Of a DNA stretch of 64,000 nt, positions 10,157-64,000 are shown in pieces. Within the stretch, counting starts at the first letter, position 1. Each line of letters begins with the position of its first letter. The translations under genes and the position numbers were made by a program. This stretch comes from an uncultured bacterium (GTDB lineage Bacteria > Edwardsbacteria > AC1 > EtOH8), in assembly GCA_964518765.1 (NCBI GenBank), contig CAZFJC010000001.1:11595-75594 (forward strand), read 5' to 3'. The notes beneath the pieces are model-generated. The model worked only from the letters and a program-made list of their open reading frames with translations. It did no database searches and was not told where the DNA came from.

Positions 10157-10235
10157 CGGGGCGTAGCGCAGTCCGGTTTAGCGCACTTGACTGGGGGTCA
10201 AGGGGTCGGTGGTTCGAATCCACTCGCCCCGACCA
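10157..10235 (+). tRNA. tRNA-Pro (anticodon GGG), CCA encoded.
   Basis: Manual fold: acceptor CGGGGCG/CGCCCCG, D-arm GCGC/GCGC, anticodon stem CTTGA/TCAAG with loop CTGGGGG (anticodon GGG), T-arm GGTGG-TTCGAAT-CCACT, discriminator A, then CCA. Confidence 0.85.
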
Positions 10236-10271
10236 ATTACGAAAAGACACTTCATCGCCGGCAAAAGTCTC

Positions 10272-10305
10272 CAGTGGTCTCCACTGAGGATTTTGCTTTT
10301 TTTTT
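10272..10305 (+). terminator. Hairpin plus long T-tract downstream of the tRNA.
   Basis: CAGTGG-tct-CCACTG followed by aggaTTTTgcTTTTTTTTT. Confidence 0.4.
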
Positions 10306-10330
10306 AGCCGGCAAAACGCAGCCGAAAGGT

Positions 10331-12334
10331 ATGACCGTAAGCGGTCGGCGCATGGCCTTCACCGAGTCGGAATTCCTCTCCAAATCATTCGCTAAGCTCC
10401 GGGGCCTTCTGCTGGGCAAGCCCAAGGACGTAGAGGACCCGAAGATATTCCACAAGATATCGCTGGTGGCCCTGCTGGCCTGGATAGGCCTGGGGGCCGA
10501 CGGCCTCTCCTCCTCCTCCTACGGCCCTGAGGAGGCCTTCCGGGCCCTAGGTCAGCACACCTACCTGCTGGTGTTCATCGCCCTGGCGACCACAACGACC
10601 GTCCTTATTATATCTTACGCCTATTCCCGAATCATCGAGCATTTCCCCCACGGCGGCGGAGGATATATCGTGGCCACCCACACCCTGGGCCGGAGGGTGG
10701 GGGTGGTCTCGGGATGCGCTCTGCTGGTGGACTACGTGCTGACCATCACCGTCTCCATCGCCGCCTGCGGCGACGCCCTGTTCAGCTTCCTGCCGCTACA
10801 GTATCACGTCTACAAAATACCTTTCTGCGCCCTGCTGATCATCGTCCTCATCGTCCTCAACCTGCGTGGCATAAAAGAATCGGTAACATTCCTGGCGCCT
10901 ATATTCGCCACCTTCTTCGTCACCCACGTGCTAATGATCCTCTACGGGATCTTCAGCCATTCTGCCCAGTTCGTGCCGGTGGTCCAGGGTATCGGGGAGG
11001 GGCTGCGCACCGACCTGGCCGCCATCGGTATATGGGGGGTGTTGGCTATTTTCGTCCGGGCCTACTCCATGGGGGCCGGCACCTACACCGGCATCGAGGC
11101 GGTGGCTAACGGACTCCAGGTGATGAGGGAGCCCAAGGTCCAAACCGGCAAGCGCACCATGGCCCTGATGGCGGGATCGCTGGCCTTCACCGCCGGGGGG
11201 CTGTTGATCTGTTACCTGTTGCTCAAGGTGCAGCCCCAGACGGGCAGGACATTGAACGCCGTCCTGGCCGACGCCCTGTTCGGCAGCTGGCCGCTGGGAA
11301 ACGTTTTGGCGCTGGTGACCATCGTCTCCGAGGGCGCCCTGCTGTTCGTGGCCGCCCAGACCGGCTTCATAGACGGACCCCGGGTGATGGCCAATATGGC
11401 GGTGGACTCCTGGTTCCCCCATCGCTTCGCCTCGCTCTCGGAGCGGCTGACCATGAACAACGGGGTGCTGCTGATGGGCCTGGCATCGCTGGTGCTGCTC
11501 TTCTACACCGGTGGGCACATCACCACCCTGGTGGTCATGTACTCCATCAACGTCTTCCTGGACTTCTCCCTCTCCCAGGCCGGCATGGCCCGCTACTTTA
11601 TTAAGAACCGGGAGGTGGAGAAGGACTGGCGGAAGGAGGTGTCCATATTCAGCGTCGGTTTCGCCCTGTGCGCTACCATCCTGACCATCGCCGTGGTGGA
11701 GAAGTTCGCCCACGGCGGCTGGCTGACTCTGGTGATCACCACCGGCCTGATCGTGATCTGCTACCGCATCCGCAACCACTACGAGACGGTGCGCCGGGGG
11801 GCCCGCCAGCTGGATGAGATCCTGCTGGACATTCCGGTGTCCGAGAGGAAGAAGGTTCTTCCGGTCAACCCCAGTGAGATGACGGCCATCGTTCTGGTCA
11901 ACGGCTACAACGGTTTCGGGGTCCACACCCTGATGTCAATCATCAGGAACTTTCCCCGCCTTTACAAGAACTTCATCTTCGTCTCGGCGGCGGTGGTGGA
12001 CTCCGGCGCCTTTAAAGGCTCCAAGGAGATAGACTCCCTCAAGGCCTCGGTGGAGAAGTCGCTCCAGCTTTACGTGGACTTGGCACACGACTTCGGCTTG
12101 GCGGCCGATTACCGTTTCGACACCGGGACCGAAGCGGTAGAAACAGTCAGCGAGCTGTGCCTGTCGCTGGCTAGGGATTTCCCCAGGTGCACTGTCTTCA
12201 CCAGCCGGCTGATATTCTCCCGAGAGAGCGTGTTCCAGCGCTTCCTACACAATGAGACGCCGTTCGCCATCCAGCGGCGCTTGCAGTGGCAGGGGATCAC
12301 CACCGTGGTACTGCCCATCAGGACTCAGATATAG
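10331..12334 (+). CDS. APC-superfamily amino-acid/cation permease with a C-terminal cytoplasmic domain.
   Basis: About 12 hydrophobic segments and APC-like motifs. The ORF-track start at 10187 lies inside the tRNA; the ATG at 10331 has AAAGG 7 nt upstream. Confidence 0.65.
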   Translation: MTVSGRRMAFTESEFLSKSFAKLRGLLLGKPKDVEDPKIFHKISLVALLAWIGLGADGLSSSSYGPEEAFRALGQHTYLLVFIALATTTTVLIISYAYSRIIEHFPHGGGGYIVATHTLGRRVGVVSGCALLVDYVLTITVSIAACGDALFSFLPLQYHVYKIPFCALLIIVLIVLNLRGIKESVTFLAPIFATFFVTHVLMILYGIFSHSAQFVPVVQGIGEGLRTDLAAIGIWGVLAIFVRAYSMGAGTYTGIEAVANGLQVMREPKVQTGKRTMALMAGSLAFTAGGLLICYLLLKVQPQTGRTLNAVLADALFGSWPLGNVLALVTIVSEGALLFVAAQTGFIDGPRVMANMAVDSWFPHRFASLSERLTMNNGVLLMGLASLVLLFYTGGHITTLVVMYSINVFLDFSLSQAGMARYFIKNREVEKDWRKEVSIFSVGFALCATILTIAVVEKFAHGGWLTLVITTGLIVICYRIRNHYETVRRGARQLDEILLDIPVSERKKVLPVNPSEMTAIVLVNGYNGFGVHTLMSIIRNFPRLYKNFIFVSAAVVDSGAFKGSKEIDSLKASVEKSLQLYVDLAHDFGLAADYRFDTGTEAVETVSELCLSLARDFPRCTVFTSRLIFSRESVFQRFLHNETPFAIQRRLQWQGITTVVLPIRTQI

Positions 12335-17572: not shown

Positions 17573-20449
17573 ATGAGATTATATGGTGTTTTGATCGCGG
17601 CAATTGTCCTGGCCACCATGGCACCGGGGCTTCGGGCCCAGGACGGATATTTCGGCAAGAACAAGGTGAACTACCGAAACTTCGAATGGCGGCAGCTGGA
17701 GACCGAGAATTTCGTCGTCTACTACTACCAGGGTGGCGACAGCCTGGCCCTGATCGCCGCCCGCTTGGCCGAGGAGGCCGGAGGCCGCCTCTCGAAAATG
17801 CTGGACCACCGCCTCACCGGACGCGTCCCCCTGGTGGTCTACTCCTCACACAATGACTTCGCCCAGACCAACATCACCACCGAGCTCATCGAGGAATCGG
17901 TGGGGGGGTTCACCACCGTTTTCAAGAACCGGGTGGTGGTGCCCTTCACCGGGTCCTATGCCGACCTGAAGCACGTTATCGCCCACGAGCTGACGCACGC
18001 CTTCATGTTCGACCTGTTCTTCGGCAAATCTCTGGAATCCGTCCTCTCCCGGCAAAGCCTAGCGTCGGTGCCGCTGTGGTTCGCCGAGGGCTTGGCCGAG
18101 TACTGTTCTCGGGGCTGGGACCCGGAGGCCGAGATGATCATCAAGGACCTGGCAGTCAACCAGCGGCTGATACCCATAGACCAGCTGGACAACTACGGTG
18201 GAAGCTACCTGGTCTACAAGGAGGGCCAGGCGGTAATGCGTTACATCGCCGAACGCTACGGTCCGCGCAAGATCCCGGAGATGCTGCACATGTTGCGCAC
18301 TACCCACAGCATCGATCGCACCTGCCGCTCCCTGTTCGGACAGGGCCTGGAGAGGCTTTCCGAGGAGTGGATGCGGAGCGTCCAGCGCCAGTACTGGCCC
18401 GCTTTGTCCCAGCACCAGGAGGTCCCCGAGTTTGCCAAGCAGCTGACCGAGCACCAGAAGAACGAATCCTACTTTAACCTCAGTCCGGTGCTTTCGCCTC
18501 AGGGGGACAAGATCGCCTACATCTCGGATCAGGGAGGGTATGCCGGTATCTATGTGGTTTCCAGCATAGACGGGCACCGCATCAGCCATCTGGTAAAGGG
18601 CGAAAGGACCTCGATGTTCGAGGCCATGCACCTGGCCTGGTTCCGTGGCGGACTCTCCTGGTCGCCGGACGGGAGCTGGCTGGCCTTCGCCGCCAAATCG
18701 GCGACCGGGGACAGGCTCTATATCGTGGACACCGAGCGGGGGCGGGTGGTTAAAGAGCATCGGTTCGACCTAGACGGTATCTACTTTCCCAGCTGGTCGC
18801 CCACGGATAACCGCATAGCCATCTGCGGGATAAAGGATGGCAAGGCCGACCTCTATCTGACCGGGGCCTTCGAGGGAGGTCTCTTGAGGTTGACCGACGA
18901 TTTCTACGACGACCGCCATCCCTGCTGGTCCCCAGACGGCAGCCGCCTCCTGTTTTCGTCCGACCGGCCGTCCGAAGCCGACAGCAGCCAAACAGGCGGG
19001 CTTTCCTTTGGCCGATACCGCCTTTTCGTTCTGGCGGCGCCCTCCGATTCAACCGGCCAGGCGCCTGATACCCCGGCCTGTGTCACCCCCGATGAATGGG
19101 GCGCCAGCGATCCTTCATGGTCCGCCTCTGGCATCTGCTATGTCTCCACCTTCAACGGGGTCCCCAACATCTTCTATCTCGACGCGCCGGGAGGAACGCC
19201 GTCGTTGATGACCAACGCTCTGACCGGATGCCTCCAGCCCCACTGGTCGCGCGACGGAAGTCGGCTGGCCTTCATCGGTTACCACCAGACTGGGTGGAAC
19301 GTGAGCCTGATGAGGAACCCGCTGGAGTCAAAACCGGTATTAAAACCGGCCGAGGAGGATGCCGGCGACACCACCTGGCACCGGCCCCGGAGGTTCACCG
19401 TGGTTTTGGGCGACAGCACCGCCGGCACCAGCCGCAAGGCCTCAACGCGCTTCTCCATCGACTGGGCTAGGGGGTCCATCGGCTATAGCTCCCTGATTGG
19501 GTTGGCTGGACAGGCCGAGATCATGGTCACTGATATGCTGGGCAACCATCTGTTCGCCTGGCAGTCGGACATGGTGATCAATCTGGAAAACTCCGACTAC
19601 CAACTTACTTATTTCTACCTGCCGCGGCGCCTTGACTACGGGCTAAGCTATTACCAGGGACACAACTACTACCTGGCCAACAACGACGACATCGTCATCG
19701 AGAAAGTTAACGGAGTCCAGGGAATCGTCTCCTATCCCTTCAACAAATACCAGCGGGCCGATCTGGTGACCAGTTGGAACCACTACCGCCAGAGCTATTA
19801 CTACTACTCGCGTCCCGACGCCAGCCTGGACATCATCGTTCCCACCCTGATGCTGGTACACGACGACGCTCTTTGGGGCCACACCGGTCCGGTGGTGGGT
19901 CGGCGGTGGCTGGCGGCCGGGGAAGCCAGCCGCAGGGTCTGGGGGAGCGATCTGGACTTCGTCACCGGCTATCTCGACCTGCGCAACTACTGGAGGCTCT
20001 CCCGGCGCGTCAGCTTGGCCTCCAGGCTGATGGGGGGAGCCTCGGTGGGTCCGGATCCCCAGCGATTCTATCTCGGCGGCAGCCAGACCCTTAGGGGCTA
20101 CGGCTACGAGTCTTTGTACGGCACCAGGATGGCTCTGGGAAACCTGGAGCTGAGGATACCCTTTATCGACCGGATGGAGATGGCTTTTCCGCCACTTCAC
20201 ATCTACGGCATTAGGGGGGCATTCTTCTATGACATGGGCGCAGCCTGGAGCGACGACCGCGGCTTTCAGGGGGCCGCCCGGCCCGAGGACGCCCTGCTCC
20301 GCCTTCATGATCTGAAGGCCTCGGTGGGAACCGGGGTGCGCATCGGACTCTATCCCTTCGTTATCAAGCTCGACCTGGCCTGGCCCACCGACCTCTCCAG
20401 GCTGGAACGGAAGCCGGTGGTCTCGTTCGCCCTGGGGAGCGAGTACTAG
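17573..20449 (+). CDS. Outer-membrane multidomain protein: signal peptide, gluzincin (HExxH...E) metallopeptidase-like domain, PD40/TolB-like beta-propeller repeats and an Omp85-type C-terminal beta-barrel.
   Basis: Signal peptide (LIAAIVLATMAPGLRA). HELTHAF followed about 25 aa later by WFAEGLAEY. Repeated WSPDG/SPDG blades. The C-terminus (FYLGGSQTLRGYGYESL ... GNLELRIPF ... ASVGTGVRIGLYPFVIKLDLAWP) resembles the Omp85/bacterial surface antigen barrel. It is paralogous to 57702..60533. Confidence 0.6.
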   Translation: MRLYGVLIAAIVLATMAPGLRAQDGYFGKNKVNYRNFEWRQLETENFVVYYYQGGDSLALIAARLAEEAGGRLSKMLDHRLTGRVPLVVYSSHNDFAQTNITTELIEESVGGFTTVFKNRVVVPFTGSYADLKHVIAHELTHAFMFDLFFGKSLESVLSRQSLASVPLWFAEGLAEYCSRGWDPEAEMIIKDLAVNQRLIPIDQLDNYGGSYLVYKEGQAVMRYIAERYGPRKIPEMLHMLRTTHSIDRTCRSLFGQGLERLSEEWMRSVQRQYWPALSQHQEVPEFAKQLTEHQKNESYFNLSPVLSPQGDKIAYISDQGGYAGIYVVSSIDGHRISHLVKGERTSMFEAMHLAWFRGGLSWSPDGSWLAFAAKSATGDRLYIVDTERGRVVKEHRFDLDGIYFPSWSPTDNRIAICGIKDGKADLYLTGAFEGGLLRLTDDFYDDRHPCWSPDGSRLLFSSDRPSEADSSQTGGLSFGRYRLFVLAAPSDSTGQAPDTPACVTPDEWGASDPSWSASGICYVSTFNGVPNIFYLDAPGGTPSLMTNALTGCLQPHWSRDGSRLAFIGYHQTGWNVSLMRNPLESKPVLKPAEEDAGDTTWHRPRRFTVVLGDSTAGTSRKASTRFSIDWARGSIGYSSLIGLAGQAEIMVTDMLGNHLFAWQSDMVINLENSDYQLTYFYLPRRLDYGLSYYQGHNYYLANNDDIVIEKVNGVQGIVSYPFNKYQRADLVTSWNHYRQSYYYYSRPDASLDIIVPTLMLVHDDALWGHTGPVVGRRWLAAGEASRRVWGSDLDFVTGYLDLRNYWRLSRRVSLASRLMGGASVGPDPQRFYLGGSQTLRGYGYESLYGTRMALGNLELRIPFIDRMEMAFPPLHIYGIRGAFFYDMGAAWSDDRGFQGAARPEDALLRLHDLKASVGTGVRIGLYPFVIKLDLAWPTDLSRLERKPVVSFALGSEY

Positions 20450-24971: not shown

Positions 24972-26084
24972 ATGGCCAAGGTCTCAATAATCAATTGTAA
25001 GACATACGAACCTGCGGAAGTAATAGCGGCAGTCAACCAAAGCATAAATATACTTGGCGGCATGTCCGCCTTCATCCGGCCCGGGCAGAAAGCGCTTCTC
25101 AAGCCCAACCTGCTCTCCGCCAAGAAACCCGAGGAGGCCATCACCACCCATCCGGCGGTCCTGGAGGCGGCCATCGTCCTGGTCAAGGAGGCAGGGGGCG
25201 TGCCGGTGGTGGGCGATAGCCCGGGCGGCAAGATATCGGACCTTCGGACCTACTGGGAGGCCACCGGCACCGCCGAGGCCTGCCGCCGGCAAGGGGCGGA
25301 GCTGGTCAGCTTCGAGAAATCTGGCGTTTACGAGAAAAGGATCGGCAACCGGAAGTATTACATCGCACGGCCGGTGCTGGACGCAGACGTTATCATCAAC
25401 ATCCCCAAGCTCAAGACCCACAGCCTGACGGTGCTCACCTGCACCGTCAAGAACATGTTCGGCGTCGTGCCCGGCATCCGCAAGTCCATGCACCACCGGG
25501 AGGCTCCCAAGCCGCGCGAGTTCTCCGGCCTGGTGGTCGATATCTTTTCGCTGGCCAGGCCCCACCTGAACATAGTCGACGCCATAGTCGGCATGGACGG
25601 GCCCGGGCCCTCGGCCGGCGATCCCAAGCAGCTGGGCTTCATCATGGCCGGGGCCGATGGGGTGGCGGTGGATGCCGCCGCCTCCCATCTGCTGGATTTG
25701 GATCCCTTTAAGGTCCCTACCACCCAGATCGCGCACCGGAGGGATCTGGGCGAAGGCGACATAAAAAGGATCGAATTGCTGGGCGAGGTGCCGCAGGTCA
25801 GAAAGGACTTCCGCTGGCCACCCTCGTGGATGTACCACCTGGTGCCGGGCGCGCTGGCCAAGGCCGGAGCCAGGCTCTTTTGGATAAGGCCGGAGATCGA
25901 TAGGCAGAAATGCGTCAACTGCGGGGCCTGCGTGGAGAGCTGTCCGGTAAGCGCTCTATCGCCTGCCGTAGGGGCGCCGGTCTTCAACTACCGGCTGTGC
26001 ATCAACTGTCTCTGCTGCCAGGAGATCTGCCCGGCCCACGCCATATCCCAGCGCAAGAGCCTGCTGGCCAGGCTGCTGAGATGA
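24972..26084 (+). CDS. DUF362-family protein with a C-terminal 2x[4Fe-4S] ferredoxin domain.
   Basis: C-terminal CVNCGACVESCP ... CINCLCCQEICP. Confidence 0.65.
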   Translation: MAKVSIINCKTYEPAEVIAAVNQSINILGGMSAFIRPGQKALLKPNLLSAKKPEEAITTHPAVLEAAIVLVKEAGGVPVVGDSPGGKISDLRTYWEATGTAEACRRQGAELVSFEKSGVYEKRIGNRKYYIARPVLDADVIINIPKLKTHSLTVLTCTVKNMFGVVPGIRKSMHHREAPKPREFSGLVVDIFSLARPHLNIVDAIVGMDGPGPSAGDPKQLGFIMAGADGVAVDAAASHLLDLDPFKVPTTQIAHRRDLGEGDIKRIELLGEVPQVRKDFRWPPSWMYHLVPGALAKAGARLFWIRPEIDRQKCVNCGACVESCPVSALSPAVGAPVFNYRLCINCLCCQEICPAHAISQRKSLLARLLR

Positions 26085-27001
26085 AGCAGCTGGGATACCT
26101 GCTCCAATACGGAGCGCTGAAGGCGGCCGGATGGCTGTTCCGGATGCTGCCGCTGCCGGCCTCCCTGGCCGTGGGGTCATGGTTGGGAGCATTGGTGCAC
26201 GCCATCGGCATCAGGCGCGGCGTAGCCCTGAACAATCTAAGGCGCGTCTTCCCCGACAGACCTGAGGCTTGGCGCCGGAATGTTGCGAGGGAACTCTACC
26301 GCAACCTGGGACGGAACCTGGCTGAGCTGCTACGGTTTCCGAGCATGTCACGGAGCGAGGTGCTGAACTCTGTGGAGTTCAGGGGCCTGGAGCATTTCGA
26401 CAACGCCCTCAGAGAGGGAAGGGGAGGTCTGCTGGTAACCGCCCACTTCGGGAACTGGGAGCTCTACGGAGCCGCCATAGCCTGCGCCGGGTATCCCATC
26501 AGCGTGGTGGTTTATCCACAACACAACCGCTGGTTAGACGACAGGCTGAACGGGCTGAGGCGCTCCAAGGGGGTGGAGGTGATATACAAGCGGGACGCGG
26601 CCCGGGACATCTTTCGGGCGCTGCGTCAGAACCGCTTCGTGGCGGTGCTCATCGACCAGGACGCCGGCTCCAATGGGGTCTTCTGCGACTTCCTGGGGCA
26701 TCCGGCTTCGACCGCCCGCGGCCCGGCCCTGCTGGCCTACAAGGCCGGCGCCCCGCTGATACCAGGGGCGATACTGAGGAAACCCGACAGAGGCCACCAG
26801 GGACTCATCCACGGGATCATCCGCCCGAACTGTGCCGCGTCGGTCGATAGCGAGGTGCGACGGATCACCGGGGAGTTGAATTCGATAATCTCGGGCTACG
26901 TCATGGAGCATCCGGACCACTGGTACTGGGTGCACCGAAGATGGAAGACCAGGCCGCCGGACAGCTGTCATCCCGAGAAGATATCGTGCCCGACAGGCTG
27001 A
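26081..27001 (+). CDS. Lipid A biosynthesis (LpxL/HtrB-family) lysophospholipid acyltransferase.
   Basis: TAHFGNWE (H-x4-E/D acyltransferase motif) plus the LpxL-like layout. ATGA overlap with the upstream gene. Confidence 0.65.
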   Translation: MKQLGYLLQYGALKAAGWLFRMLPLPASLAVGSWLGALVHAIGIRRGVALNNLRRVFPDRPEAWRRNVARELYRNLGRNLAELLRFPSMSRSEVLNSVEFRGLEHFDNALREGRGGLLVTAHFGNWELYGAAIACAGYPISVVVYPQHNRWLDDRLNGLRRSKGVEVIYKRDAARDIFRALRQNRFVAVLIDQDAGSNGVFCDFLGHPASTARGPALLAYKAGAPLIPGAILRKPDRGHQGLIHGIIRPNCAASVDSEVRRITGELNSIISGYVMEHPDHWYWVHRRWKTRPPDSCHPEKISCPTG

Positions 27002-45373: not shown

Positions 45374-45828
45374 CCTACGTGAACGGCCGAAGGCACCAGT
45401 TGAACGAACGTGACCTGGGAAAGAGCCTTCTTGTTTATCTACGGGAAGACCTGAACCTGACCGGGACCAAGAACGGCTGCGGCATCGGGGTCTGCGGGGC
45501 CTGCACCGTTCTACTGAACAGCCGGCCGGTGCGCTCCTGCCGCTTGAAGGTAGCCGAAATTGTCGACAGCAACGTCTTGACCATAGAGGGCCTATCTCGG
45601 GAGGATGGCACGCTCCACCCCCTTCAACAAGCCTTCCTCGATGCCGGCGCCGTCCAGTGCGGTTTCTGTACCCCGGGCATGGTGCTGACCGCCCACGCCT
45701 TTCTCATACGGAACCCGAGCCCCAGCCGAGACCAGATCCGGCGTGCTATATCCGGGAACCTCTGCCGGTGCACTGGTTACCAGCAGATCATAGACGCCAT
45801 CGAGGCGGCGGCCCCTCATTATCGTTAA
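45367..45828 (+). CDS. [2Fe-2S]-binding small subunit of the molybdenum hydroxylase.
   Basis: CGIGVCGACTV ... QCGFCTPG ... CRCTGY. Confidence 0.85.
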   Translation: MVTYVNGRRHQLNERDLGKSLLVYLREDLNLTGTKNGCGIGVCGACTVLLNSRPVRSCRLKVAEIVDSNVLTIEGLSREDGTLHPLQQAFLDAGAVQCGFCTPGMVLTAHAFLIRNPSPSRDQIRRAISGNLCRCTGYQQIIDAIEAAAPHYR

Positions 45829-45851
45829 GAAGAGTGTTAGACCAAGCTTCT

Positions 45852-47945
45852 ATGGAAAAGTCCTCGATATCTATCTTCGCTCTTGCGCTGCTGGCCGCTG
45901 GCGTATGCGCCCAGCCAATACCGCCAACCGCCAGTACGATCGAATGGACCGACAGCATCCACGGTTACCTCAGGAGGGACGAATACCACTGGCTGAAAAA
46001 CAGGGAGGACCCGGAGGTTCTGGCCTATCTCCGGGCGGAGAACGTCTATGCCGATACCATGCTTTCGCAATCAAGGAAGCTTCGGGAAAGGCTGTATCGG
46101 GAGATGAGAAAAGGGGTCCGCGACGAGGACCTTTCCGTGCCGGTCAAGGTCGACAGCTTCTACTACTACGACCGAACGCTGAAGGGTAAGGAATACAGCC
46201 TCTACTGCCGCAAGAAGGGAAGCCTTAAGGCCCGGGAGGAGGTCCTGCTGGATGAGAACAAATTGGCGGAGGGCAGAAAATACTTTTCCATCGATGGGAC
46301 TAAAATCAGCCCCGACCATAGAATTTTAGCGTATCTGGCCGATACCAGCGGCGCCTTCCTCTACACCATATATTTCAAAGACCTGTCCGAAGGTAGACTA
46401 GTTGATTCTATCTCCTCATCCCTGGGAATGGCGTGGGCTTCGGACAGCCGGACCGTCTTCTACGAGGCATGCGATTCGACCCAAAGAGCGGACCGCATTC
46501 TCCGACACCGTTTGGGAGAACCGGCCGACAGCGACCGGGTGGTCTACCATGAAAAAGATCCGGAGTTCACCTCCAGCATCTACCGGTCCCAGTCCCGCAA
46601 ATACCTTATCATTCATTCCTACAGCAAGACGACCACCGAAGCCTGGCTCTGTCCGGCCGACCGCCCCGATTCGGGCTTTACCTTGTTCCAACCAAGGAAT
46701 CCCGGCATCGAATACTATCTGGAGCACCGCGGCGATTCGCTGTACGTCTTTACCAACGATAGTGCCGAAAACTATCGTCTCCTCTCCGCGCCGATCAGCG
46801 GTTGGCAGCATGTGCCTTGGAACCAGGTCATTCCCGGACGCCGGGACGTTCTCTTGGAGGATGTCCGGCTATACCGCGATTACCTGGTGGTGATGGAACG
46901 GGAGCGCGGCCTCCAGAAATTGCGGGTCATCTCACGGGACGGAACGATCGACAGGTACCTTACATTTCCGGAGCCGACCTACTCAGTCTACCCCTGGCGG
47001 AGCTACGAATTTGATGCCACCCTTTTACGCTATACCTACAACTCCATGGTCACCCCACCGGCGGTATACGACTACGACATGAGATCTGGCTCCTACCTGC
47101 TGAAGAAGCGATACTCGGTGCCAGGCTACAAACCGGAAAGATATGTATCCGAGCGCATCTATGCGCCAGCGCCAGACGGCGAGATGATCCCCGTCTCCCT
47201 GGTCTACCGCCGCGATCTCAGAAAGCCCGGCGGAAATCCCTGTATGCTGAGAAGCTATGGGGCATACGGAACGAGCAGCAATCCCAATTTCAGCTCCACC
47301 GGCATCAGCCTGCTGGACCGGGGCTTCATCCTGGCCATAGCCCATGTGCGGGGTGGCCAGGAGTTGGGCCGCCGATGGTACGTCGACGGCAAGCTGCTGA
47401 AGAAGCTGAACACCTTCACCGACTTCATCGCCTGCGCCGAGCACCTAGTGGCCAAGGGGTACACCTCGCCTTCGCTCCTGGCCATCGGTGGCGGCAGCGC
47501 CGGGGGGCTGCTCATCGGGGCGGTAGTCAACATGAGACCGGACCTGTTCCGGGCCGCGGTCCTCGACGTTCCGTTCCTGGACATGATCAACACTATGCTG
47601 GACCCGACCATCCCGTTGACCACCATCGAGTACCAGGAATGGGGAGACCCAAGGATTAAGCAGTATTACGAGTACATGGCCTCCTATGCACCCTACGAGA
47701 ACATCAGGGCCCAGGATTACCCGGCCATGCTGGTGACCGGAGGGTTGAACGACGCCAACGTTCCCTATTGGGAGCCGGCCAAGTGGGTGGCCAGGCTGAG
47801 AAGGATGAAGACCGATTCCAATCCGTTGCTCCTGAAGATCGATATGTCCAGCGGGCACGGCGGGGCCTCGGGGCGATTCGCCTACCTTAGGGACACGGCT
47901 TTCGAGTTCGCTTTTTTGCTGGACATAATGGGGATTAAAAAATAG
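45852..47945 (+). CDS. S9A prolyl-oligopeptidase-family peptidase (oligopeptidase B-like) with a signal peptide.
   Basis: Signal peptide (IFALALLAAGVCA). N-terminal beta-propeller region and C-terminal catalytic domain with GGSAGGLL nucleophile elbow. The track start at 45657 is an upstream artefactual extension. Confidence 0.75.
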   Translation: MEKSSISIFALALLAAGVCAQPIPPTASTIEWTDSIHGYLRRDEYHWLKNREDPEVLAYLRAENVYADTMLSQSRKLRERLYREMRKGVRDEDLSVPVKVDSFYYYDRTLKGKEYSLYCRKKGSLKAREEVLLDENKLAEGRKYFSIDGTKISPDHRILAYLADTSGAFLYTIYFKDLSEGRLVDSISSSLGMAWASDSRTVFYEACDSTQRADRILRHRLGEPADSDRVVYHEKDPEFTSSIYRSQSRKYLIIHSYSKTTTEAWLCPADRPDSGFTLFQPRNPGIEYYLEHRGDSLYVFTNDSAENYRLLSAPISGWQHVPWNQVIPGRRDVLLEDVRLYRDYLVVMERERGLQKLRVISRDGTIDRYLTFPEPTYSVYPWRSYEFDATLLRYTYNSMVTPPAVYDYDMRSGSYLLKKRYSVPGYKPERYVSERIYAPAPDGEMIPVSLVYRRDLRKPGGNPCMLRSYGAYGTSSNPNFSSTGISLLDRGFILAIAHVRGGQELGRRWYVDGKLLKKLNTFTDFIACAEHLVAKGYTSPSLLAIGGGSAGGLLIGAVVNMRPDLFRAAVLDVPFLDMINTMLDPTIPLTTIEYQEWGDPRIKQYYEYMASYAPYENIRAQDYPAMLVTGGLNDANVPYWEPAKWVARLRRMKTDSNPLLLKIDMSSGHGGASGRFAYLRDTAFEFAFLLDIMGIKK

Positions 47946-56791: not shown

Positions 56792-57711
56792 GCAAGAGGC
56801 CGTCGGTCTTGGTGCTGGCCGGCCCAACGGCGGTGGGGAAAACAGCCCTGGCCTTAGAGCTTTGCCGAAAAATGGGGGCGGATATCATCTCGGCCGATTC
56901 ACGGCAGATATATCGGCATCTCGACATCGGGACCGCCAAGCCCACAGCTGAGGAGCAACGTCAGGCCAGGCATCATCTGATAGACATCCTGGAACCGGGC
57001 CAAAGCTACAGCGCCGGCAGATACGCCCAAGACGCTAGGGCAGCCATGTCCCGTCTGGATACTGAGGGAAGACGGTTTATCGTCACCGGGGGATCCGGCC
57101 TTTACATCCGGGCACTGATCGAAGGATTCTCCGAGATCCCTCCGGTGGATCCCGATATCAGCCAAAGGTTGCGCCTAGAGGCTGATGGGAACGGCAGCGA
57201 ACCTCTATACCGAAGGCTGATGAAGGAGGATGAGACCACCGCCCGACGTCTAAAGCCAGCCGATAAATCCAGGATCGTCCGGGCCTTGGAGGTGCTGGAG
57301 GCCACCGGCCGTCCCATCAGCTATTGGCAGGGATTGCCCCGGGCCGGGGACGGAAGACGCTACCACCTGGTGATCCTCAGCCGGGAGCGCCGCCAGCTGT
57401 ATCGGATGATCGATGACAGGGCAGAGAGGATGATAGCCGACGGCCTTTTAGACGAAGTACGACGTCTGGAGGAACAGGGCTTCCGGCCGGCGATGGAGAG
57501 CATCAAGGCCGTGGGGTATCGGGAGGCCCTGCGGCATCTGGACGGGGAAATCAACCTACCGGCCATGGCCGAGGCCATAAAACGAAACAGCCGCCGCTTC
57601 GCCAAACGCCAGTTGACCTGGTTCCGGGGAATGGCCGACGCCGAGTGGCTTGAGCTCACGGGGACGAAGGCGGCTCTAGCGCATCTGCTGCCACTCTGTC
57701 AGTGGGACTAA
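56788..57711 (+). CDS. miaA: tRNA dimethylallyltransferase.
   Basis: LAGPTAVGKT P-loop; mutL-miaA synteny with ATGA overlap. Confidence 0.9.
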   Translation: MSKRPSVLVLAGPTAVGKTALALELCRKMGADIISADSRQIYRHLDIGTAKPTAEEQRQARHHLIDILEPGQSYSAGRYAQDARAAMSRLDTEGRRFIVTGGSGLYIRALIEGFSEIPPVDPDISQRLRLEADGNGSEPLYRRLMKEDETTARRLKPADKSRIVRALEVLEATGRPISYWQGLPRAGDGRRYHLVILSRERRQLYRMIDDRAERMIADGLLDEVRRLEEQGFRPAMESIKAVGYREALRHLDGEINLPAMAEAIKRNSRRFAKRQLTWFRGMADAEWLELTGTKAALAHLLPLCQWD

Positions 57712-60533
57712 GATCGTGCCGAACATGGACCGCCGTCTGGGCCATCTTTGGAATGGCCGCGGCCGGGTCATTTTTCTCTGGGCCGGCTCTGGGGCAAAAC
57801 CTTTCTCCCGTCCCCTATGGCTGGAGCTGGAGCTTCCTGGAGACCGAGAACTTCAAAGTCATATATCACCGTGGAACGGAGCCGCTGGCCCGACGCGCGG
57901 CTGCCATGGCCGAGCTGGTACACCAGAGGCTAACGAAGACCATGGGCTGGCACCCCAAGCACAGGACCCGATTAGTGATCCTGGACAACACCGACCAAGC
58001 CAATGCCCTGTCCCTAGCCTTTCCCCGGAACACCATCCTCGTCTACCCGGCTCCGCCGTCCGGGGGGCCGGGCAACTACCTGGATTGGCTTTACGAGCTG
58101 CTGCTTCACGAGTACGCTCACATCCTCCACCTCGACCATGTCTCCGGGCTGATGGCCTACCTCAGGTCGGTATTCGGCCGGGTGATAATTCCCAACGCCC
58201 TCCAGCCGATGAGCCAGCTGGAGGGCATGGCTGTTTACGCCGAAAGCCGTTTCTCCTCCATGGGACGGAACAACAGTGCCCTGACCGAAGGCATCCTGAG
58301 GACGGTAGCGGCCGAAGGAGACTGGCCGAGCCTCGATCGAGCCGCAACCTTCAATTCCCGATGGCCCTGGGATGCCCCGTACCTCTTTGGCGGAAAGTTC
58401 ACCCAGTATTTGGCGGATTCCTTCGGCGAGGCCCCATTGGAGAGATATAGCCAAATCCATGGAGGACAACTGATCCCCTTCATGCAGAACCGGCCGGCCC
58501 AAAAAGCTTTCGGAAGCTCCCTCGATCAACTATGGGGCCAGTGGCGTAACCGGTCTCTGAAGTCTTACAAACGGCAATGCGATTCCCTTTCGGCCCCAGC
58601 GGCGGCAAGGCAGGAGAGGATAACCAACGACGGATTTTGGAAATCAGGCCTGGCCGTCTCTGGAGGGACGCGCCAGATAGCCTATTTTGCCAACGACGGC
58701 CGGAGCCATCCAGGGATCTGGCTGATGGAGACATCTGGCGACAAATCTTATTTAGCACACCGATGCTGGATAGATGGAGCCTTATCTTTTAGTTCCGATG
58801 GACGCTCTATATACTTTGGGCGGTTGGATTATGTCAACGACCGGGGGGAGCTTTCTTGCGACCTCTATCGTTTTGATATCGAACAGGACCGGGCAGTAAG
58901 ATTGACGCATGGTTGGCGGGCCAGGGACCCGGCCCCCTCGCCCGACGGGCGATGCCTTTACTTCACCACCACCAGACTGGGGCAGGGCGCTCTCTGCCGC
59001 CTTAAGCTGGACGGAATGGCGGTGGATACCCTGGTGGGCTTCGGCGACTCCTCGGCCATCAGTTGTCCGTCGGTTTCCCCGGACGGCCGGCTGCTGGCCT
59101 TCTCCGCCTGGACGGGAGAGGGGTACCAGGATATATACCTCTATGATTTGGAGAACGGTGCCTGCCGGCCCCTATTCACGGACCGGGCTCAGGAAATCCA
59201 GCCGCGCTGGTCGTCGGACGGGAGGGGCTTGTACTTCAGCTCGGACAGAAGCGGAGTCTGGAATATCTACCGATGGGAGAGGAAGACCGCCAGGATTTAT
59301 AAGACCACCGATCAGATCGGCGGGGCTTTCTGGCCGGCCCCCTCAGGCGACGCCTTGTGGTCGGTCGTCCTGACCGGACGGGGATACGAAATAGCAGAGG
59401 CCAGCCTCGACTCCGGGGTCGCATGCGAGGGGGAATACAGCGATGGTTACTATTATACCGGTCCCCTGGCGGAATTTGACGGCCCAAGCCGGCCGTATCA
59501 TTTCTGGAATAGCCTTCTGCCGGTGGCTTGGCTGCCCTACGGCTTCAGCGACAGAGACGGGGGGCACCTGGGGGCGGCGATTGTGGGGGCCGACGACCTG
59601 ATGCGCCATTACTACCTAGCGGCGATAGCCCCGGGAAAAAGCTTTGGTCGCTGGTATTACGACGGCCTTTATTCCTGCGGCTCACTGCCCGTCGGATTAG
59701 AGTTCAGGGCCAGCGATTATGTGCTGGCCAGAGAGGCGGACGGCAGCTATCTTCATTACCAAAGGGTAAGGGAGGCGTCCCTGGACGCATCAAAGACCTT
59801 CGGTGGATTATACAGAAGATTGAGCTTGGGGATGGGATTGAGCCGGAGGATATATTCCGAGGAATATGAAACGCCCGCCGCATCAGGCAATCATTGGCAG
59901 GGGTGCTTGGTCAGAGCCTCGACCTCCGCTTCATACAACAGCACCCAGCGCTATATTAAATCAATCGGCCCGGAGGACGGCCTGACGGCGTCTTTGTCCA
60001 CCTATTGGTACCGAAAGCTGTTCGGGAGCGACGTGGATCAAACCTGGGTGCAGGCCGGGTTGGCTCAATACCTGAGGCTGCCCTTAGCCAATCATGTTCT
60101 GATGGGATCAGTGATGGCCGGGGGCGGAACCGCCAAAGGGTCTTTCGTCGACGAATTCTGTGATGGATTCCGGGTGCGTGGACAGGATGAGGGGCCTAAC
60201 GGCCGGCGAAAGATAAAAGGCACCATCGAGGCCAGGTTTCCGATCGGCCGGGTGGAAAGGGGTCTAGGCACCTGGCCCCTATTTCTGCATGTCGTCCATG
60301 GCGCCCTTTTCGCCGAGGCCAACTGGGGCGGTGGTAACATGGCGCGGTTGGGATGGAGGCAGATGGGACGCTGTCTGGGGGGCGAGGTCCGGGCCGATGG
60401 GACGATATTCTACGCCGTCGACATGCAGCTCGGCCTCGGCTTGGCCAGGACCTTGGGGGAGGGGGGCGAAATGGTTCCCTATCTATCGCTGTCAACGCCA
60501 TTGGCTATGTTCCATGGATTGGCGCCGCGTTAA
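57702..60533 (+). CDS. Paralogue of 17573..20449: signal peptide, gluzincin HExxH...E domain, PD40-like propeller and Omp85-type C-terminal barrel (GTG start).
   Basis: LLLHEYAHILHLDH ... QLEGMAVYAES. Repeated SPDG/SSDG blades. The C-terminus (GFRVRGQ ... GTIEARFPI ... GALFAEANW ... FYAVDMQLGLGLAR) is barrel-like. Confidence 0.6.
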   Translation: MGLRSCRTWTAVWAIFGMAAAGSFFSGPALGQNLSPVPYGWSWSFLETENFKVIYHRGTEPLARRAAAMAELVHQRLTKTMGWHPKHRTRLVILDNTDQANALSLAFPRNTILVYPAPPSGGPGNYLDWLYELLLHEYAHILHLDHVSGLMAYLRSVFGRVIIPNALQPMSQLEGMAVYAESRFSSMGRNNSALTEGILRTVAAEGDWPSLDRAATFNSRWPWDAPYLFGGKFTQYLADSFGEAPLERYSQIHGGQLIPFMQNRPAQKAFGSSLDQLWGQWRNRSLKSYKRQCDSLSAPAAARQERITNDGFWKSGLAVSGGTRQIAYFANDGRSHPGIWLMETSGDKSYLAHRCWIDGALSFSSDGRSIYFGRLDYVNDRGELSCDLYRFDIEQDRAVRLTHGWRARDPAPSPDGRCLYFTTTRLGQGALCRLKLDGMAVDTLVGFGDSSAISCPSVSPDGRLLAFSAWTGEGYQDIYLYDLENGACRPLFTDRAQEIQPRWSSDGRGLYFSSDRSGVWNIYRWERKTARIYKTTDQIGGAFWPAPSGDALWSVVLTGRGYEIAEASLDSGVACEGEYSDGYYYTGPLAEFDGPSRPYHFWNSLLPVAWLPYGFSDRDGGHLGAAIVGADDLMRHYYLAAIAPGKSFGRWYYDGLYSCGSLPVGLEFRASDYVLAREADGSYLHYQRVREASLDASKTFGGLYRRLSLGMGLSRRIYSEEYETPAASGNHWQGCLVRASTSASYNSTQRYIKSIGPEDGLTASLSTYWYRKLFGSDVDQTWVQAGLAQYLRLPLANHVLMGSVMAGGGTAKGSFVDEFCDGFRVRGQDEGPNGRRKIKGTIEARFPIGRVERGLGTWPLFLHVVHGALFAEANWGGGNMARLGWRQMGRCLGGEVRADGTIFYAVDMQLGLGLARTLGEGGEMVPYLSLSTPLAMFHGLAPR

Positions 60534-62295
60534 GCCCATCCTGTTGGCCGCCCTTCAGGCGGCAGCTTTCAGCAGCCTGGCTCCAGCCCTGGGGTTCGAG
60601 GGAAACGTTCATTACGGCTCATGGCGACTGAGGCGGGAGTTGGGAGTCGATAAAAAATTCGTGTCGAAGCCTGAGAGCCTGGCGGCGGGGATGGAGAGGC
60701 TGACCGCCTTCTACCGCCGAAACGGCTTTATCGACGCCAGGATCGAGTTCTTCAGGGGCGGACATGGCCAAGACGCCGAGAGCCTTAAGATACTGATAAC
60801 CGAAGGTCCGCGCTATACCGTGGGCAGCTTGTCCTTCAAAGGGAACGACAGCCTTGGGCCTACCCTGCTGGCCAAGGGGCTGTCCAACCAAACGGGCAGG
60901 CCCTATAACCCGGACGCCGTCGGGTCCGACGAGTTCAAGCTGCTGATGGCCTACGCCGATCGCGGCTACGTCTTCGCCGGCGCTGAGGCCCAGGTGGAGC
61001 TGATGCCGGACACCACCGCAGCTCTGACCTTCTCCATCAGCGAAGGGAGGCGGGTTAGGGTGGGAGCAGTTTCGGTGAGGGGAAACTCCTTCTCCGCCGG
61101 GGAGGCGCTCATCCGAAGGGTGGGGATCAGGGCTGGAGATTTTTTCAGCCGAAGGGCCATGCTTGACGGAGAGCTGGCCCTGGCGGGCACCGGCCTGTTT
61201 AGTGAGTCAAGGGTCCAGCCCGGGGCGGTCAGCCACGACAGCACGACCATCGAGGTGGAAATAACGGTGGCGGAAAGGCCCCGGAGGCGGTTAGAGACTG
61301 GTTTGGGATACGGCAGCGGCGACGCCTTCAGGGTGATGGCCCGCTGGCTCAACCGCAACGTCGACGGCTGGGGACAGCGACTGGAGATAAGCGGTTTGGC
61401 AGCCGTCCAGCTTTGGCGGGACATCAGGCTGGTCCGGGGGCGGGCCCAGGTGTCATATCAAGAACCATGGCTTTTCCGCCGTGACCTGCCGGCCAAGGCC
61501 GCCGTCTACTATGACGACCACCGCCCTCCCTATACTGACTACCGTTTACAGACGGTAGGTATAGACCTGGACATATACCAGCGGCTGGGGCTTGACAACT
61601 ACCTTGACTGGCGGGCCAGCCAGCAGTGGCTGAGGCTATCGCCCAACTGGCGCGACCCGGAGATCCCGTCGGACACTATCAGGTACCATGGGCGTCGAAG
61701 CGTCTCCACCGGGTGGTTTCTGAACCGCCTGGACGATCCATTGTCCCCTCGAAATGGATATACAGCCCAATTGGCGCTTGAGTACACCGGGGGCTTTTTC
61801 GGAGGCGTCAGCACCTATCAAAGGATCAATGTAAATCTGACAGGATACGCCACCCTGGCCAAGCCCCGCACCACACTGGCCTTCAGGGCCAGGGGAGGTA
61901 TCATCGGAGACTGGGAGAAAAGGCACCTGGTGCCGTACTACGAAAGATATTTTCTGGGCGGGCCGACCACCCTGAGAGGGTATTCCAGCGGCAAGGCCGG
62001 CAGGCTTTCGGTGACAGGGGAGCCGCTGGGCGGCAAGAAGATGATGCTGGCCAATGTCGAGCTAAGGCCGACCATATACCGCCGGTGGGCGGCTAGCTTG
62101 TTCCTGGATGTGGGCATCCTGTCCGATAGTCCGTTGAGGAAAATGTCGTTGAGCGAGGCCTACACCAGCCCGGGGCTGGGGCTCAGGTACGTGCTTCCCA
62201 TGGGGACGGGAAGGCTGGACATAGCCTCGACGGGCACGAGTATGGAACAGATAAAAGAATGGAAGGTTATATTGGCTTGGGGTGAGATCTTTTAA
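60514..62295 (+). CDS. Omp85/BamA-family outer-membrane protein with POTRA-like N-terminal region.
   Basis: Signal peptide (ILLAALQAAAFSSLA); POTRA-like repeats; C-terminal barrel with TLRGYSS ... ANVELRP ... terminal GEIF (C-terminal aromatic). The start overlaps the upstream gene by 20 nt. Confidence 0.7.
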   Translation: MDWRRVKPILLAALQAAAFSSLAPALGFEGNVHYGSWRLRRELGVDKKFVSKPESLAAGMERLTAFYRRNGFIDARIEFFRGGHGQDAESLKILITEGPRYTVGSLSFKGNDSLGPTLLAKGLSNQTGRPYNPDAVGSDEFKLLMAYADRGYVFAGAEAQVELMPDTTAALTFSISEGRRVRVGAVSVRGNSFSAGEALIRRVGIRAGDFFSRRAMLDGELALAGTGLFSESRVQPGAVSHDSTTIEVEITVAERPRRRLETGLGYGSGDAFRVMARWLNRNVDGWGQRLEISGLAAVQLWRDIRLVRGRAQVSYQEPWLFRRDLPAKAAVYYDDHRPPYTDYRLQTVGIDLDIYQRLGLDNYLDWRASQQWLRLSPNWRDPEIPSDTIRYHGRRSVSTGWFLNRLDDPLSPRNGYTAQLALEYTGGFFGGVSTYQRINVNLTGYATLAKPRTTLAFRARGGIIGDWEKRHLVPYYERYFLGGPTTLRGYSSGKAGRLSVTGEPLGGKKMMLANVELRPTIYRRWAASLFLDVGILSDSPLRKMSLSEAYTSPGLGLRYVLPMGTGRLDIASTGTSMEQIKEWKVILAWGEIF

Positions 62296-62460
62296 AGACA
62301 CACTATTCGTTTTTTGCAGGTGTATGGAAAAAAATGCACCTATTTTTATTTATTCACAACATACCAAAGGAATGTATGTTGTAATGCAAGAAGTTAGAAT
62401 TCATTATTTTGGCATAGAATATGCTTAGTGTATTTTTAAACTTATATAAAGGATTAGATT

Positions 62461-64000
62461 ATGAAAAAATTGTTTTACATCCTATTGTTTTCTTTGATGG
62501 CGGGTGTTGCTTTGGGACAGACAATATTGGATAGCTATACAGATGGTAACTTCACGGCGAATCCAACGTGGTCAGGCGATGCATCAAACTGGACAATAGT
62601 AACCTCAAGCGATGTCGCGGCGGGTGCGTCAAATTCCAATACGCTTCGCCTTTCGGCACCAAAAGTTATTCAATACGATTATCTCTCAACACAGATAGCC
62701 AATTGGGGCAGCAGTCAAGAATGGGGGTTCTTTCTTGGGAGAAGGGCGCAAGCTTATACGGCAGCGAATAAGGTATTTATCTGGCTTTATGCAAACGATG
62801 CCAACTTAGAATCTTCAACAGTAGACGGTTATCAAATCGTGATAGGTGATGATTCGGGCAACGATGAAATACTCGTTCAGAGCGTCACAAATGGCGTTGG
62901 CACAACTTTCTTAACTTCGGCGAATTCGATACCGAATGGTCTTACGGATATTGGAATACTGATTAGAGTGACTCGTAGTTCAAGCGGTTTGTGGGAGCTA
63001 TTTACTTCAACTTTGCCAACCGTAAACGGCACCGGGGCCATAGCTTCAATGATACCAAACGCTTCAAATGCTTCAATAAGTCAAGGAACGGCGACAAATA
63101 CGACATATACTCCATCAGCCAATGGTTTTTTTGGGATTGTTGCATATCATAGCACCGGTGACAATGCGATAGCGACCGTAGAATTAGATCAAGTCTATTT
63201 CACCATCCCTGGAACCCCATCAATTAATCTGACCCCTTCATCCATGGATTATGATACCCTTTTGTTAAATGACACGCTGGAATCAAGCTATGTTGTCTCC
63301 GGCGACAACCTGACCGCCGGGATCACGGTCACCGCGCCGTCCTCCGAGTTCAAGGTCTCACTGACCAGCGGCTCGGGGTATTCCAACTCTGTGACCATCC
63401 CCCTGCAAGGGGATTCAGTCCCACCAACCAATGTTTACGCCATCATGGTCCCGACCAGCGAAGGCACAAAGTCCGGCAACATTACCAATGCCAGCGCCGG
63501 TGCCGCCACCCAGAACGTGGCCGTCAGCGGCTACGGGACAAAGATACACCTGCTAAGCAACCTTGCCAGCTTTGGCGGGGTGGAGGTAGGACAGACGTCG
63601 GCAGAGCAGTACTATCGTTTGGCTGCCTCAGGGTTAGGGCCAGAAAGCAATCTTTCGGTGACTGCTCCCTTGCAATATCTTGTATCCCTGACTTCAGGAT
63701 CCGGATATTCGTCGAGTTGCAACATAAGGGCCGATGAGAATGGAAGGATTTTAGAAGATACAGTTTTCGTGCGTTTCTCTCCCTCCAGCACCGGCACCAA
63801 GTTCGACAGCATCAGCCATGTAAGTTCGGGCGCCATCACACGGTACCAGAGGGTGTACGGCCGGGGCGTGGACAGCGAGCCGACCGTCCAGGCCAGCAAC
63901 ATTAACTTCAGCAATATAAACACCTACGACATGAGGGTCAGCTGGAACCGCGGCAACGGGGCCGGATGCGTGGTGGTGGCCCGATGCGAGAACCCGGTGG
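62461..64000 (+). CDS. Secreted surface protein, 3' partial (runs off the window). It is absent from the ORF track because it has no stop in the window.
   Basis: Manual translation: MKKLFYILLFSLMAGVALGQ signal peptide, then a Ser/Thr/Asn-rich beta-type sequence ending in a ...DMRVSWNRGNGAGCVVVARCE FN3-like motif. AAAGGA RBS; the 5' part is AT-rich. Confidence 0.55.
   Translation, partial: MKKLFYILLFSLMAGVALGQTILDSYTDGNFTANPTWSGDASNWTIVTSSDVAAGASNSNTLRLSAPKVIQYDYLSTQIANWGSSQEWGFFLGRRAQAYTAANKVFIWLYANDANLESSTVDGYQIVIGDDSGNDEILVQSVTNGVGTTFLTSANSIPNGLTDIGILIRVTRSSSGLWELFTSTLPTVNGTGAIASMIPNASNASISQGTATNTTYTPSANGFFGIVAYHSTGDNAIATVELDQVYFTIPGTPSINLTPSSMDYDTLLLNDTLESSYVVSGDNLTAGITVTAPSSEFKVSLTSGSGYSNSVTIPLQGDSVPPTNVYAIMVPTSEGTKSGNITNASAGAATQNVAVSGYGTKIHLLSNLASFGGVEVGQTSAEQYYRLAASGLGPESNLSVTAPLQYLVSLTSGSGYSSSCNIRADENGRILEDTVFVRFSPSSTGTKFDSISHVSSGAITRYQRVYGRGVDSEPTVQASNINFSNINTYDMRVSWNRGNGAGCVVVARCENPV

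Follow-up and report, generated by a model that had tools for sequence, protein, structure and literature searches.

Does a protein that combines a zinc-peptidase motif, a β-propeller and an outer-membrane β-barrel act alone, or does it work with the POTRA-bearing Omp85 protein encoded directly behind it? This question is raised by two genes in a 64,000-nt stretch of contig CAZFJC010000001.1 (assembly GCA_964518765.1) of an uncultured bacterium affiliated with the Edwardsbacteria, hereafter the window. We call the genes A2 (57702..60533) and B (60514..62295), and a third gene of the window, related to A2, is called A1 (17573..20449). Omp85 proteins act universally as insertases in the outer membranes of bacteria, mitochondria and chloroplasts; the reuse of their barrels, and the access of proteases to substrates stalled at an insertase, are questions touched by the A2-B pair. 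From sequences and predicted structures, all from uncultured bacteria, we propose with about even confidence that the pair is best explained as a co-transcribed envelope module, in which a barrel-anchored, periplasm-facing protease works with, or is assembled by, a dedicated TamA-derived Omp85 protein. This proposal builds on the architecture of the two proteins, the conservation of the catalytic motif, a gene junction of the kind found in co-transcribed genes, the exclusive co-occurrence of A2 and B, and a loss of barrel motifs that is confined to the partnered clade.

A2 is an open reading frame (ORF) of 943 aa on the + strand with a GTG start and a stop codon at 60531-60533. It encodes a signal peptide, an HExxH peptidase domain, a six-bladed propeller and a POTRA-less, 16-stranded Omp85 barrel. 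The N-terminal α/β peptidase domain (aa 43-297; 57828..58592) aligns to the Peptidase_MA_2-positive domain of A1, and contains the motifs HEYAH (residues 136-140; 58107-58121) and LEGMAVYAES (residues 173-182; 58218-58247), the latter including the third zinc ligand. The TolB-like (PD40) β-propeller follows at aa 312-568 (58635..59405) and the Omp85-type barrel at aa 609-931 (59526..60494), where the loop-6 RG is kept in the sequence FRVRGQ (60168-60185). The gene callers used for the public data chose later starts, at 57753 for A2 and at a TTG at 60640 for B. We consider the starts at 57702 and 60514 the better ones, because both yield classical signal peptides and fit the lengths of the homologues (928-942 aa for A2, 593-598 aa for B).

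The three-part layout that the initial annotation had read from the letters is borne out by the ORF, by the Pfam PD40 matches and by an AlphaFold2 model built from an alignment of 68 sequences (predicted local distance difference test score, pLDDT, 87.8; predicted template modelling score, pTM, 0.89). The motif positions given above follow the 943-aa ORF, while the model and the zinc-ligand residues below follow a 926-aa numbering. The model comprises an α/β domain (26-280), about 22 propeller strands (295-551) and 16 long strands (592-914). PD40 propeller repeats are the only Pfam matches of A2. It has no Pfam match to a POTRA domain, and the model has no β-α-α-β-β unit between propeller and barrel. 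PF01103 (Omp85) does not match A2 above the gathering score and matched only one of 17 members of the A2 clade, weakly (E 7e-5). The barrel of the family was recognized instead by hidden Markov model (HMM) alignment with the barrel of B (hhalign probability 95.3%, E 2e-8) and by its 16 predicted strands, which give the C-terminal domain an Omp85 fold. With a TolB-like propeller N-terminal to a POTRA-less Omp85 barrel, A2 belongs to the WD40-Omp85 type of protein.

The residues H119, E120, H123 and E157 are invariant in 68 of 68 family sequences, which span three subfamilies and 20-74% identity, and the context EGxAxYxE around the third zinc ligand is conserved among the A2 homologues. The resulting pattern, HEYxH...EGxAxYxE, is that of collagenase- and flagellinolysin-like gluzincins. 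A1 matches the profiles of Peptidase_MA_2 (PF13485, E 5e-12) and flagellinolysin (E 8e-10), support that reaches A2 indirectly through the alignment of the two proteins. Because of the invariant zinc motif, the gluzincin pattern and the profile matches of A1, A2 is best read as an active zinc peptidase joined to a TolB-like propeller and a POTRA-less Omp85 barrel. Its HExxH motif and downstream Glu would place it among the gluzincin metallopeptidases (clan MA; Peptidase_MA_2 / M9-like).

B (60514..62295, + strand, ATG start) encodes a TamA-like Omp85 protein of 593 aa with a signal peptide, three POTRA domains (60589-60801, 60817-61044 and 61057-61275) and a barrel (61285-62292). Pfam detects the three POTRA domains (PF07244) as well as Omp85, and an AlphaFold model (pLDDT 79.6) contains three POTRA units and about 16 barrel strands. 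The loop-6 motif is canonical, YFLGGPTTLRGY (FLGGPTTLRGY), and the C-terminus reads AWGEIF with a terminal Phe. B matches TamA chains in the PDB (E 3e-15) and has the three POTRA domains and Omp85 barrel that define TamA. Against NF047950, the NCBIfam model of TamA, it scores 100 bits at a cut-off of 625 bits. This test discriminates poorly outside Proteobacteria, since the TamB-linked Omp85 proteins of loci L018 and L021 also fall below the cut-off.

The initial annotation had left open that B might simply be the housekeeping bamA. We reject B as a typical housekeeping bamA because of its POTRA count (three, not five), its score and its neighbourhood. Against TIGR03303, the BamA equivalog model with a cut-off of 297 bits, B reaches 246 bits, with model positions 157-731 aligned and POTRA1-2 of the model uncovered; the BamA-type proteins P0151, P0152 and P0154 score 360-434 bits. 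A search seeded with P0151, the best BamA-type match, returned about 100 BamA-like proteins, none with a taxon name tying it to the lineage of the window. In the window, B is flanked by none of skp, lpxD, rseP and tamB; its neighbours there are mutL-miaA-A2 upstream and the gene of a secreted 1409-aa protein downstream. The neighbours at other B loci differ from these, and none of the B-clade loci examined has an adjoining tamB-like gene (PF04357). In the contrast locus L020, a BamA gene is followed by an ORF that was read as lpxD by eye, without an HMM check, and L018 and L140 show the order rseP-Omp85.

B lies directly downstream of A2 in all ten complete loci of the A2 clade (the window, L002/L011, L004, L005, L010, L012, L013, L015, L016 and L139) and also in L014, where the locus is truncated. 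Records of this clade carry the labels UBP2, Candidatus Edwardsbacteria or unclassified bacterium; a single protein is labelled TA06. The flanks vary: in the window the pair follows mutL-miaA, and in L004 it stands between an amino-acid permease gene and deoC/uvrC, within a block (der-plsY-gpsA-...-permease ... GT2-surE-pcm) that otherwise shares synteny with positions 5.8-16 kb of the window. Because the two genes stay adjacent, within -20 to +10 nt, while their flanks differ, the pair moves as a unit. It is a conserved module, in agreement with the earlier view of a module rather than a random fusion. No adjacent dedicated partner was found in the other subfamilies, for which about 55 loci were compared (the Nitrospirota-type loci L007, L008, L136 and L137/138, A1 of the window and 47 A1-type metagenome loci). 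Pairing is confined to one clade, where it is invariable in the loci examined.

A2 has more than 700 homologues. Those with at least 36% identity (18 clusters) have no precomputed Omp85 match, and homologues at greater distance (30-34%, mostly Nitrospirota) usually have one and measure about 965 aa. The close relatives of B form about 24 clusters at 38-84% identity, after which identity drops to at most 28%. When 1.84 billion representatives were searched exhaustively with HMMER, 30,073 Omp85 relatives were returned, of which only four full-length representatives and one fragment belong to the B clade (938-439 bits; the next match scores 384 bits).

Among the loci of the pair, one sublineage has a TPR_21 (YfgM-like) gene directly after B (L005/L006, 12718-13389; L139, 9956-10633). 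In E. coli, yfgM adjoins bamB. The neighbour of B could point once more to outer-membrane biogenesis, or be a coincidence. The Nitrospirota-type homologues have recurrent neighbours of their own, namely a gene for an NAD-dependent epimerase/NmrA-like protein of about 296 aa downstream (L007, 11001-11891; L136, 8097-8984; L137, 3849-4745) and, in L007 and L136, a cation ATPase gene and a Cons_hypoth698 gene upstream, in differing order.

The barrel of A2 differs from those of its stand-alone relatives. The RG of the loop-6 lid-lock motif, (F/Y)xLGG...(V/L)RG(Y/F) or in short LGG..RG[YF], is invariant in the A2 family (R809, G810), as is the peptidase motif, but the LGG half is absent from all 17 A2-clade proteins, including that of the window. 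It is present in 40 of 50 Nitrospirota-type proteins, in A1 of the window and in 20 of 21 members of the B clade. A C-terminal aromatic residue was found in two of the 17 A2-clade proteins, compared with 31 of 50 Nitrospirota-type proteins, five of five A1-type proteins and 21 of 21 B-clade proteins, where it is always F. A2 of the window lacks this residue, and its close relatives end in the non-canonical tail TPLAMFHGLAPR. Because these barrel hallmarks were lost only where a POTRA-bearing Omp85 protein is co-encoded, their loss suggests that A2 depends on B; it is the strongest argument for this dependence, although an indirect one. One protease-propeller-Omp85 architecture thus exists in stand-alone and obligately partnered forms, a natural experiment in which the partnered form lost motifs thought to support autonomous barrel function and assembly (the loop-6 LGG and the C-terminal aromatic β-signal).

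The initial annotation described A2 and A1 as paralogues. A1 (+ strand, 958 aa) has detectable Peptidase_MA_2, PD40 and Omp85 domains, a canonical LGG..LRGY motif and a terminal Tyr, and no Omp85 partner nearby. The alignment of A2 with A1 confirms homology and the common three-part layout, with 25% identity over about 510 columns (E 9e-19); it covers both zinc motifs, and the match of the barrels is weak. A recent duplication is contradicted by the identity of A2 to stand-alone Nitrospirota-type proteins (32-34%), which exceeds that to A1 of its own genome (20-25%). Judged by these alignments, A1 and A2 are anciently diverged subfamilies of the same architecture.

The origin of B was approached with a neighbour-joining tree of the three POTRA domains and the barrel (200 bootstrap replicates). 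The B clade was monophyletic in 200 of 200 replicates, and it was sister to some or all of the Omp85 proteins of L018, L021 and P0162/L140 in 133 of 200. These proteins have three POTRA domains each, with tamB directly downstream of their genes. B therefore seems to have branched off from a TamB-coupled, BamA/TamA-like insertase, an assignment that we regard as tentative.

Two of these loci also contain an A1-type gene. In L018 (1130-13599) the gene order is uppS-cdsA-dxr-rseP, a three-POTRA Omp85 gene (633 aa), tamB and an A1-type HExxH-PD40-Omp85 gene. L140 (2-8316) shows rseP, an Omp85 gene (639 aa), tamB and an A1-type gene that runs to the contig end; the encoded fragment is 54% identical to A1 of the window. 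In both, the short TamB-coupled Omp85 protein occupies the canonical bamA slot after rseP and the A1-type gene follows tamB, so that the A family is tied genomically to outer-membrane biogenesis in at least two lineages. Linkage to TamAB as a general property of the family was rejected, because neither a TamB nor a B-like gene was found near A1-type genes in any of the 47 metagenome loci; the tamB-A1 adjacency occurs in L018 and L140 only.

At the junction of the pair, the stop region of A2 overlaps the start of B by 20 nt (60514..60533, + strand), as the initial annotation had noted along with the signal peptide, the POTRA/Omp85 domains and the terminal GEIF of the B product, all of which we recovered. 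The overlap is consistent with translational coupling, and the junctions among relatives and the window measure -20, +10, -4, +2 and -4 nt. A terminator-like hairpin with a T-run (62318..62351, + strand; the hairpin itself at 62318-62341), 23 nt past the stop codon of B, probably marks the end of a transcription unit mutL-miaA-A2-B; it was found by a consensus scan, and all promoter and terminator calls are consensus matches only. The frame of B is open back to 60289, which raised the possibility of a programmed frameshift fusing A2 to B. We dismissed this, since the relatives show gaps or 4-nt overlaps with independent starts.

The gene behind B begins at 62461 and runs off the window end (62461-64000). 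It encodes the start of the secreted 1409-aa protein, which has Big_5, Lactamase_B and FlgD_ig domains and a faint C-terminal domain of the type IX secretion system kind. Its GC content is 37-48%, compared with about 61% for the genes around it. The same gene follows A2-B in L002, so a recent insertion does not account for it. No RNA genes or tRNAs were found in the low-GC stretch after B.

How the A2-B module might function can be sketched from these features. The 16-stranded barrel of A2 would anchor a gluzincin-type peptidase and a six-bladed propeller in the outer membrane. Omp85-type barrels of 16 strands have both termini in the periplasm. The peptidase and propeller are most likely tethered under the outer membrane on its periplasmic face, because both barrel ends face the periplasm, A2 has no POTRA domain or passenger-type linker, and the N-terminal domain of PlpD, carried on an Omp85 barrel, is periplasmic (PMC11116518). 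The propeller may act in substrate binding or gating, as in other propeller peptidases. B, derived from TamA-like, TamB-coupled insertases, would have become the dedicated partner of A2 in the A2 clade, and would either insert A2 into the membrane or stay bound to it as an Omp85-Omp85 pair. Its POTRA domains could handle unfolded envelope proteins, which A2 would cleave. A functional parallel would be the E. coli β-barrel assembly machinery (BAM) with BepA, a protease that degrades substrates stalled on BAM (PMC13067283), except that the protease here would be anchored by its own barrel. The BAM-associated proteolytic module suggested in the initial annotation is therefore a reasonable functional guess by analogy, and the one we prefer.

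Among known systems, the nearest to A2 is the WD40-Omp85 subfamily, which Heinz and Lithgow named in 2014 on bioinformatic grounds, by clustering sequences (PMC4104836). A2, A1 and the Nitrospirota-type proteins fit this subfamily, sharing the POTRA-less Omp85 barrel behind a TolB-like propeller. In the passages of that paper that were searched, only the propeller is described and a BamA-BamB-like scaffold is proposed; the HExxH...E domain, a POTRA-bearing partner and a degeneration of the barrel are not mentioned there. Our literature search found no functional study of the peptidase-propeller-Omp85 architecture. We conclude that A2 belongs to a known but uncharacterized kind of protein, and that what is new is its partnered form, with a TamA-like Omp85 protein that appears to have exchanged TamB for a protease-barrel partner. 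The finding draws attention to the WD40-Omp85 family, hundreds of proteins with an invariant zinc-peptidase motif.

With TamA of the TamA-TamB system, B shares three POTRA domains, a 16-stranded Omp85 barrel, the loop-6 RGY and the terminal Phe, and its nearest relatives outside the clade are the TamB-linked three-POTRA Omp85 proteins of L018, L021 and L140. B differs in having no adjacent tamB, its constant neighbour being A2, upstream. BamA and BepA of E. coli would resemble the proposed pair as a POTRA-bearing insertase with a periplasmic zinc metalloprotease that has an interaction domain (TPR in BepA, the propeller in A2). BepA, an M48 protease that is soluble or peripheral, has its gene elsewhere in the genome, whereas A2 would be a barrel-anchored gluzincin of another family. 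In PlpD, the type Vd prototype, an enzyme domain is likewise attached to the N-terminus of an Omp85 barrel, and its barrel-barrel dimers are a precedent for Omp85-Omp85 contacts. PlpD is a patatin lipase with one POTRA domain that forms a homodimer and has no partner gene; A2 instead combines a peptidase with a propeller, is accompanied by a distinct partner gene and gave no patatin or POTRA match in Pfam, so that it falls outside type Vd. In the BAM complex of Bacteroidota (FCB group), BamA binds the integral barrel partner BamG (PMC12578637), an Omp85 insertase being stably joined to a second integral barrel, which is a precedent for the proposed partnership of barrels. As described there, BamG is an integral outer-membrane protein for which neither Omp85 nor protease character is mentioned, and the additional subunits build a dome outside the cell.

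Several points weigh against our interpretation. The PF13485 (Peptidase_MA_2) profile matched none of the 17 A2-clade members, the peptidase domain of this clade has no sequence match in the PDB, and no structural neighbour of this domain appeared among the listed matches of a fold search, which are dominated by propeller and barrel. Adjacency and translational coupling prove co-expression only. Protease function as such needs no B, because the same architecture functions in hundreds of relatives that have no dedicated adjacent partner. The proposed topology of A2 follows from barrel geometry and PlpD, and the quality-control role from analogy. The placement of B as sister to TamA-type proteins is only moderately supported (66%), and its TamA origin is tentative because HMM scores place BamA-type proteins of about 900 aa no farther from B than TamA-type ones.

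Beyond co-operation, A2 and B might constitute a stable hetero-oligomer of two Omp85 proteins, with the insertase permanently coupled to a propeller-gated protease, a self-contained 'insert-or-destroy' machine for outer-membrane proteins derived from a TAM-like system (TAM, translocation and assembly module) in which TamB was replaced by the protease-Omp85 protein. A2 would then have given up autonomous assembly and lid-lock features by docking on B. We regard this as possible but rather unlikely. If the two proteins form a complex, it would be the first machine known to unite two different Omp85 proteins. It would also parallel BepA as a protease tethered by a barrel, and would show that a TamA-type protein can swap TamB for another partner. 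The A2-B module is of moderate interest for outer-membrane biogenesis as it stands, and would be of higher interest if an Omp85-Omp85 complex were shown.

It is similarly doubtful, in our opinion, that A2 and B are co-expressed but functionally independent, with B a general insertase (a TamA with tamB elsewhere, or the only BamA) and A2 an independent protease in the same operon. B does keep all canonical Omp85 features (three POTRA domains, FLGG..LRGY and a terminal Phe), and the relatives of A2 mostly stand alone. A short Omp85 protein can also be a housekeeping insertase, because three-POTRA Omp85 proteins fill the rseP-adjacent 'bamA slot' in related lineages. B itself, unlike these nearest relatives, has no rseP, skp, lpxD or tamB neighbours, and its clade is long-branched and very small, although an essential housekeeping gene is expected to be conserved and widespread. 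Independence also leaves unexplained that neither gene is found without the other in any locus examined, that both shift genomic context jointly, and that the motifs of an autonomous barrel were lost from A2 only in the partnered clade. Moreover, BamA-like proteins with one to three POTRA domains are reported always to occur alongside a true BamA (PMC4104836).

Less probable still is a type V-like surface display, in which the peptidase and propeller would form a passenger exported via or beside the A2 barrel with B as a TAM-like helper, giving a scavenging surface protease. An N-terminal enzyme on a C-terminal Omp85 barrel was the original type Vd (PlpD) model, and TAM assists the assembly of autotransporters and adhesins (PMC11014939). 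The surroundings would suit a scavenger: the region is rich in genes of peptide and amino-acid catabolism (an S9 prolyl oligopeptidase, M29 and M20 peptidases and an amino-acid permease), and the next gene encodes a large secreted protein. But later work showed that PlpD has its N-terminal domain exclusively in the periplasm (PMC11116518), known TolB-like propellers are periplasmic, and A2 has neither a POTRA domain nor a long unstructured linker with which to thread a barrel, while the folded passenger would measure about 550 aa and include a closed propeller.

The likeness to two-partner secretion (TpsA/TpsB, type Vb) to which the initial annotation pointed extends to two adjacent genes, one of them for a POTRA-bearing barrel of the Omp85/TpsB superfamily. 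Its strict features are absent from the pair. B has three POTRA domains instead of two and no ShlB/TpsB-type barrel, with no match to PF03865 or PF08479 at E<=0.01. A2 has no match to a TPS domain and forms a membrane barrel of its own, whereas the cargo of two-partner secretion is a secreted soluble protein. Strict two-partner secretion was rejected on this domain content.

That A2 is a non-catalytic, BamB- or TolB-like propeller platform on a barrel, with the HExxH domain a degenerate relic, is very improbable: the missing Pfam peptidase match in the A2 clade and the reading of the family as a BamA-BamB-like fusion by Heinz and Lithgow (PMC4104836) speak for it, but the HExxH motif and downstream Glu are invariant in 68 sequences of three subfamilies and EGxAxYxE is conserved, which is not expected of a dead enzyme.

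Other parts of the window contain features of separate interest. Positions 24400-54900 hold a large cluster for purine/pyrimidine and amino-acid catabolism, with two xanthine-dehydrogenase-type molybdoenzymes with an FAD/2Fe-2S subunit, an adenine deaminase, a dihydropyrimidine-dehydrogenase-like protein, amidohydrolases, an M20 peptidase, XdhC, a MobA-like protein, a carbamoyltransferase and the S9 prolyl oligopeptidase (45657-47945). A tRNA-Pro(GGG) gene at 10157-10235 overlaps the listed TTG start of the amino-acid permease ORF (10187-12334), the true start of which is probably further downstream. Another unusual envelope protein, of 444 aa, is encoded at 1392-2726; in it, TPR repeats are joined to a domain resembling CsgG, of the curli secretion channel family (E 1e-16). 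At 25910-27001, a homologue of lipid A biosynthesis acyltransferases (Lip_A_acyltrans, detected among the called genes of L009) indicates a lipopolysaccharide-containing diderm envelope, which fits functional Omp85 genes.

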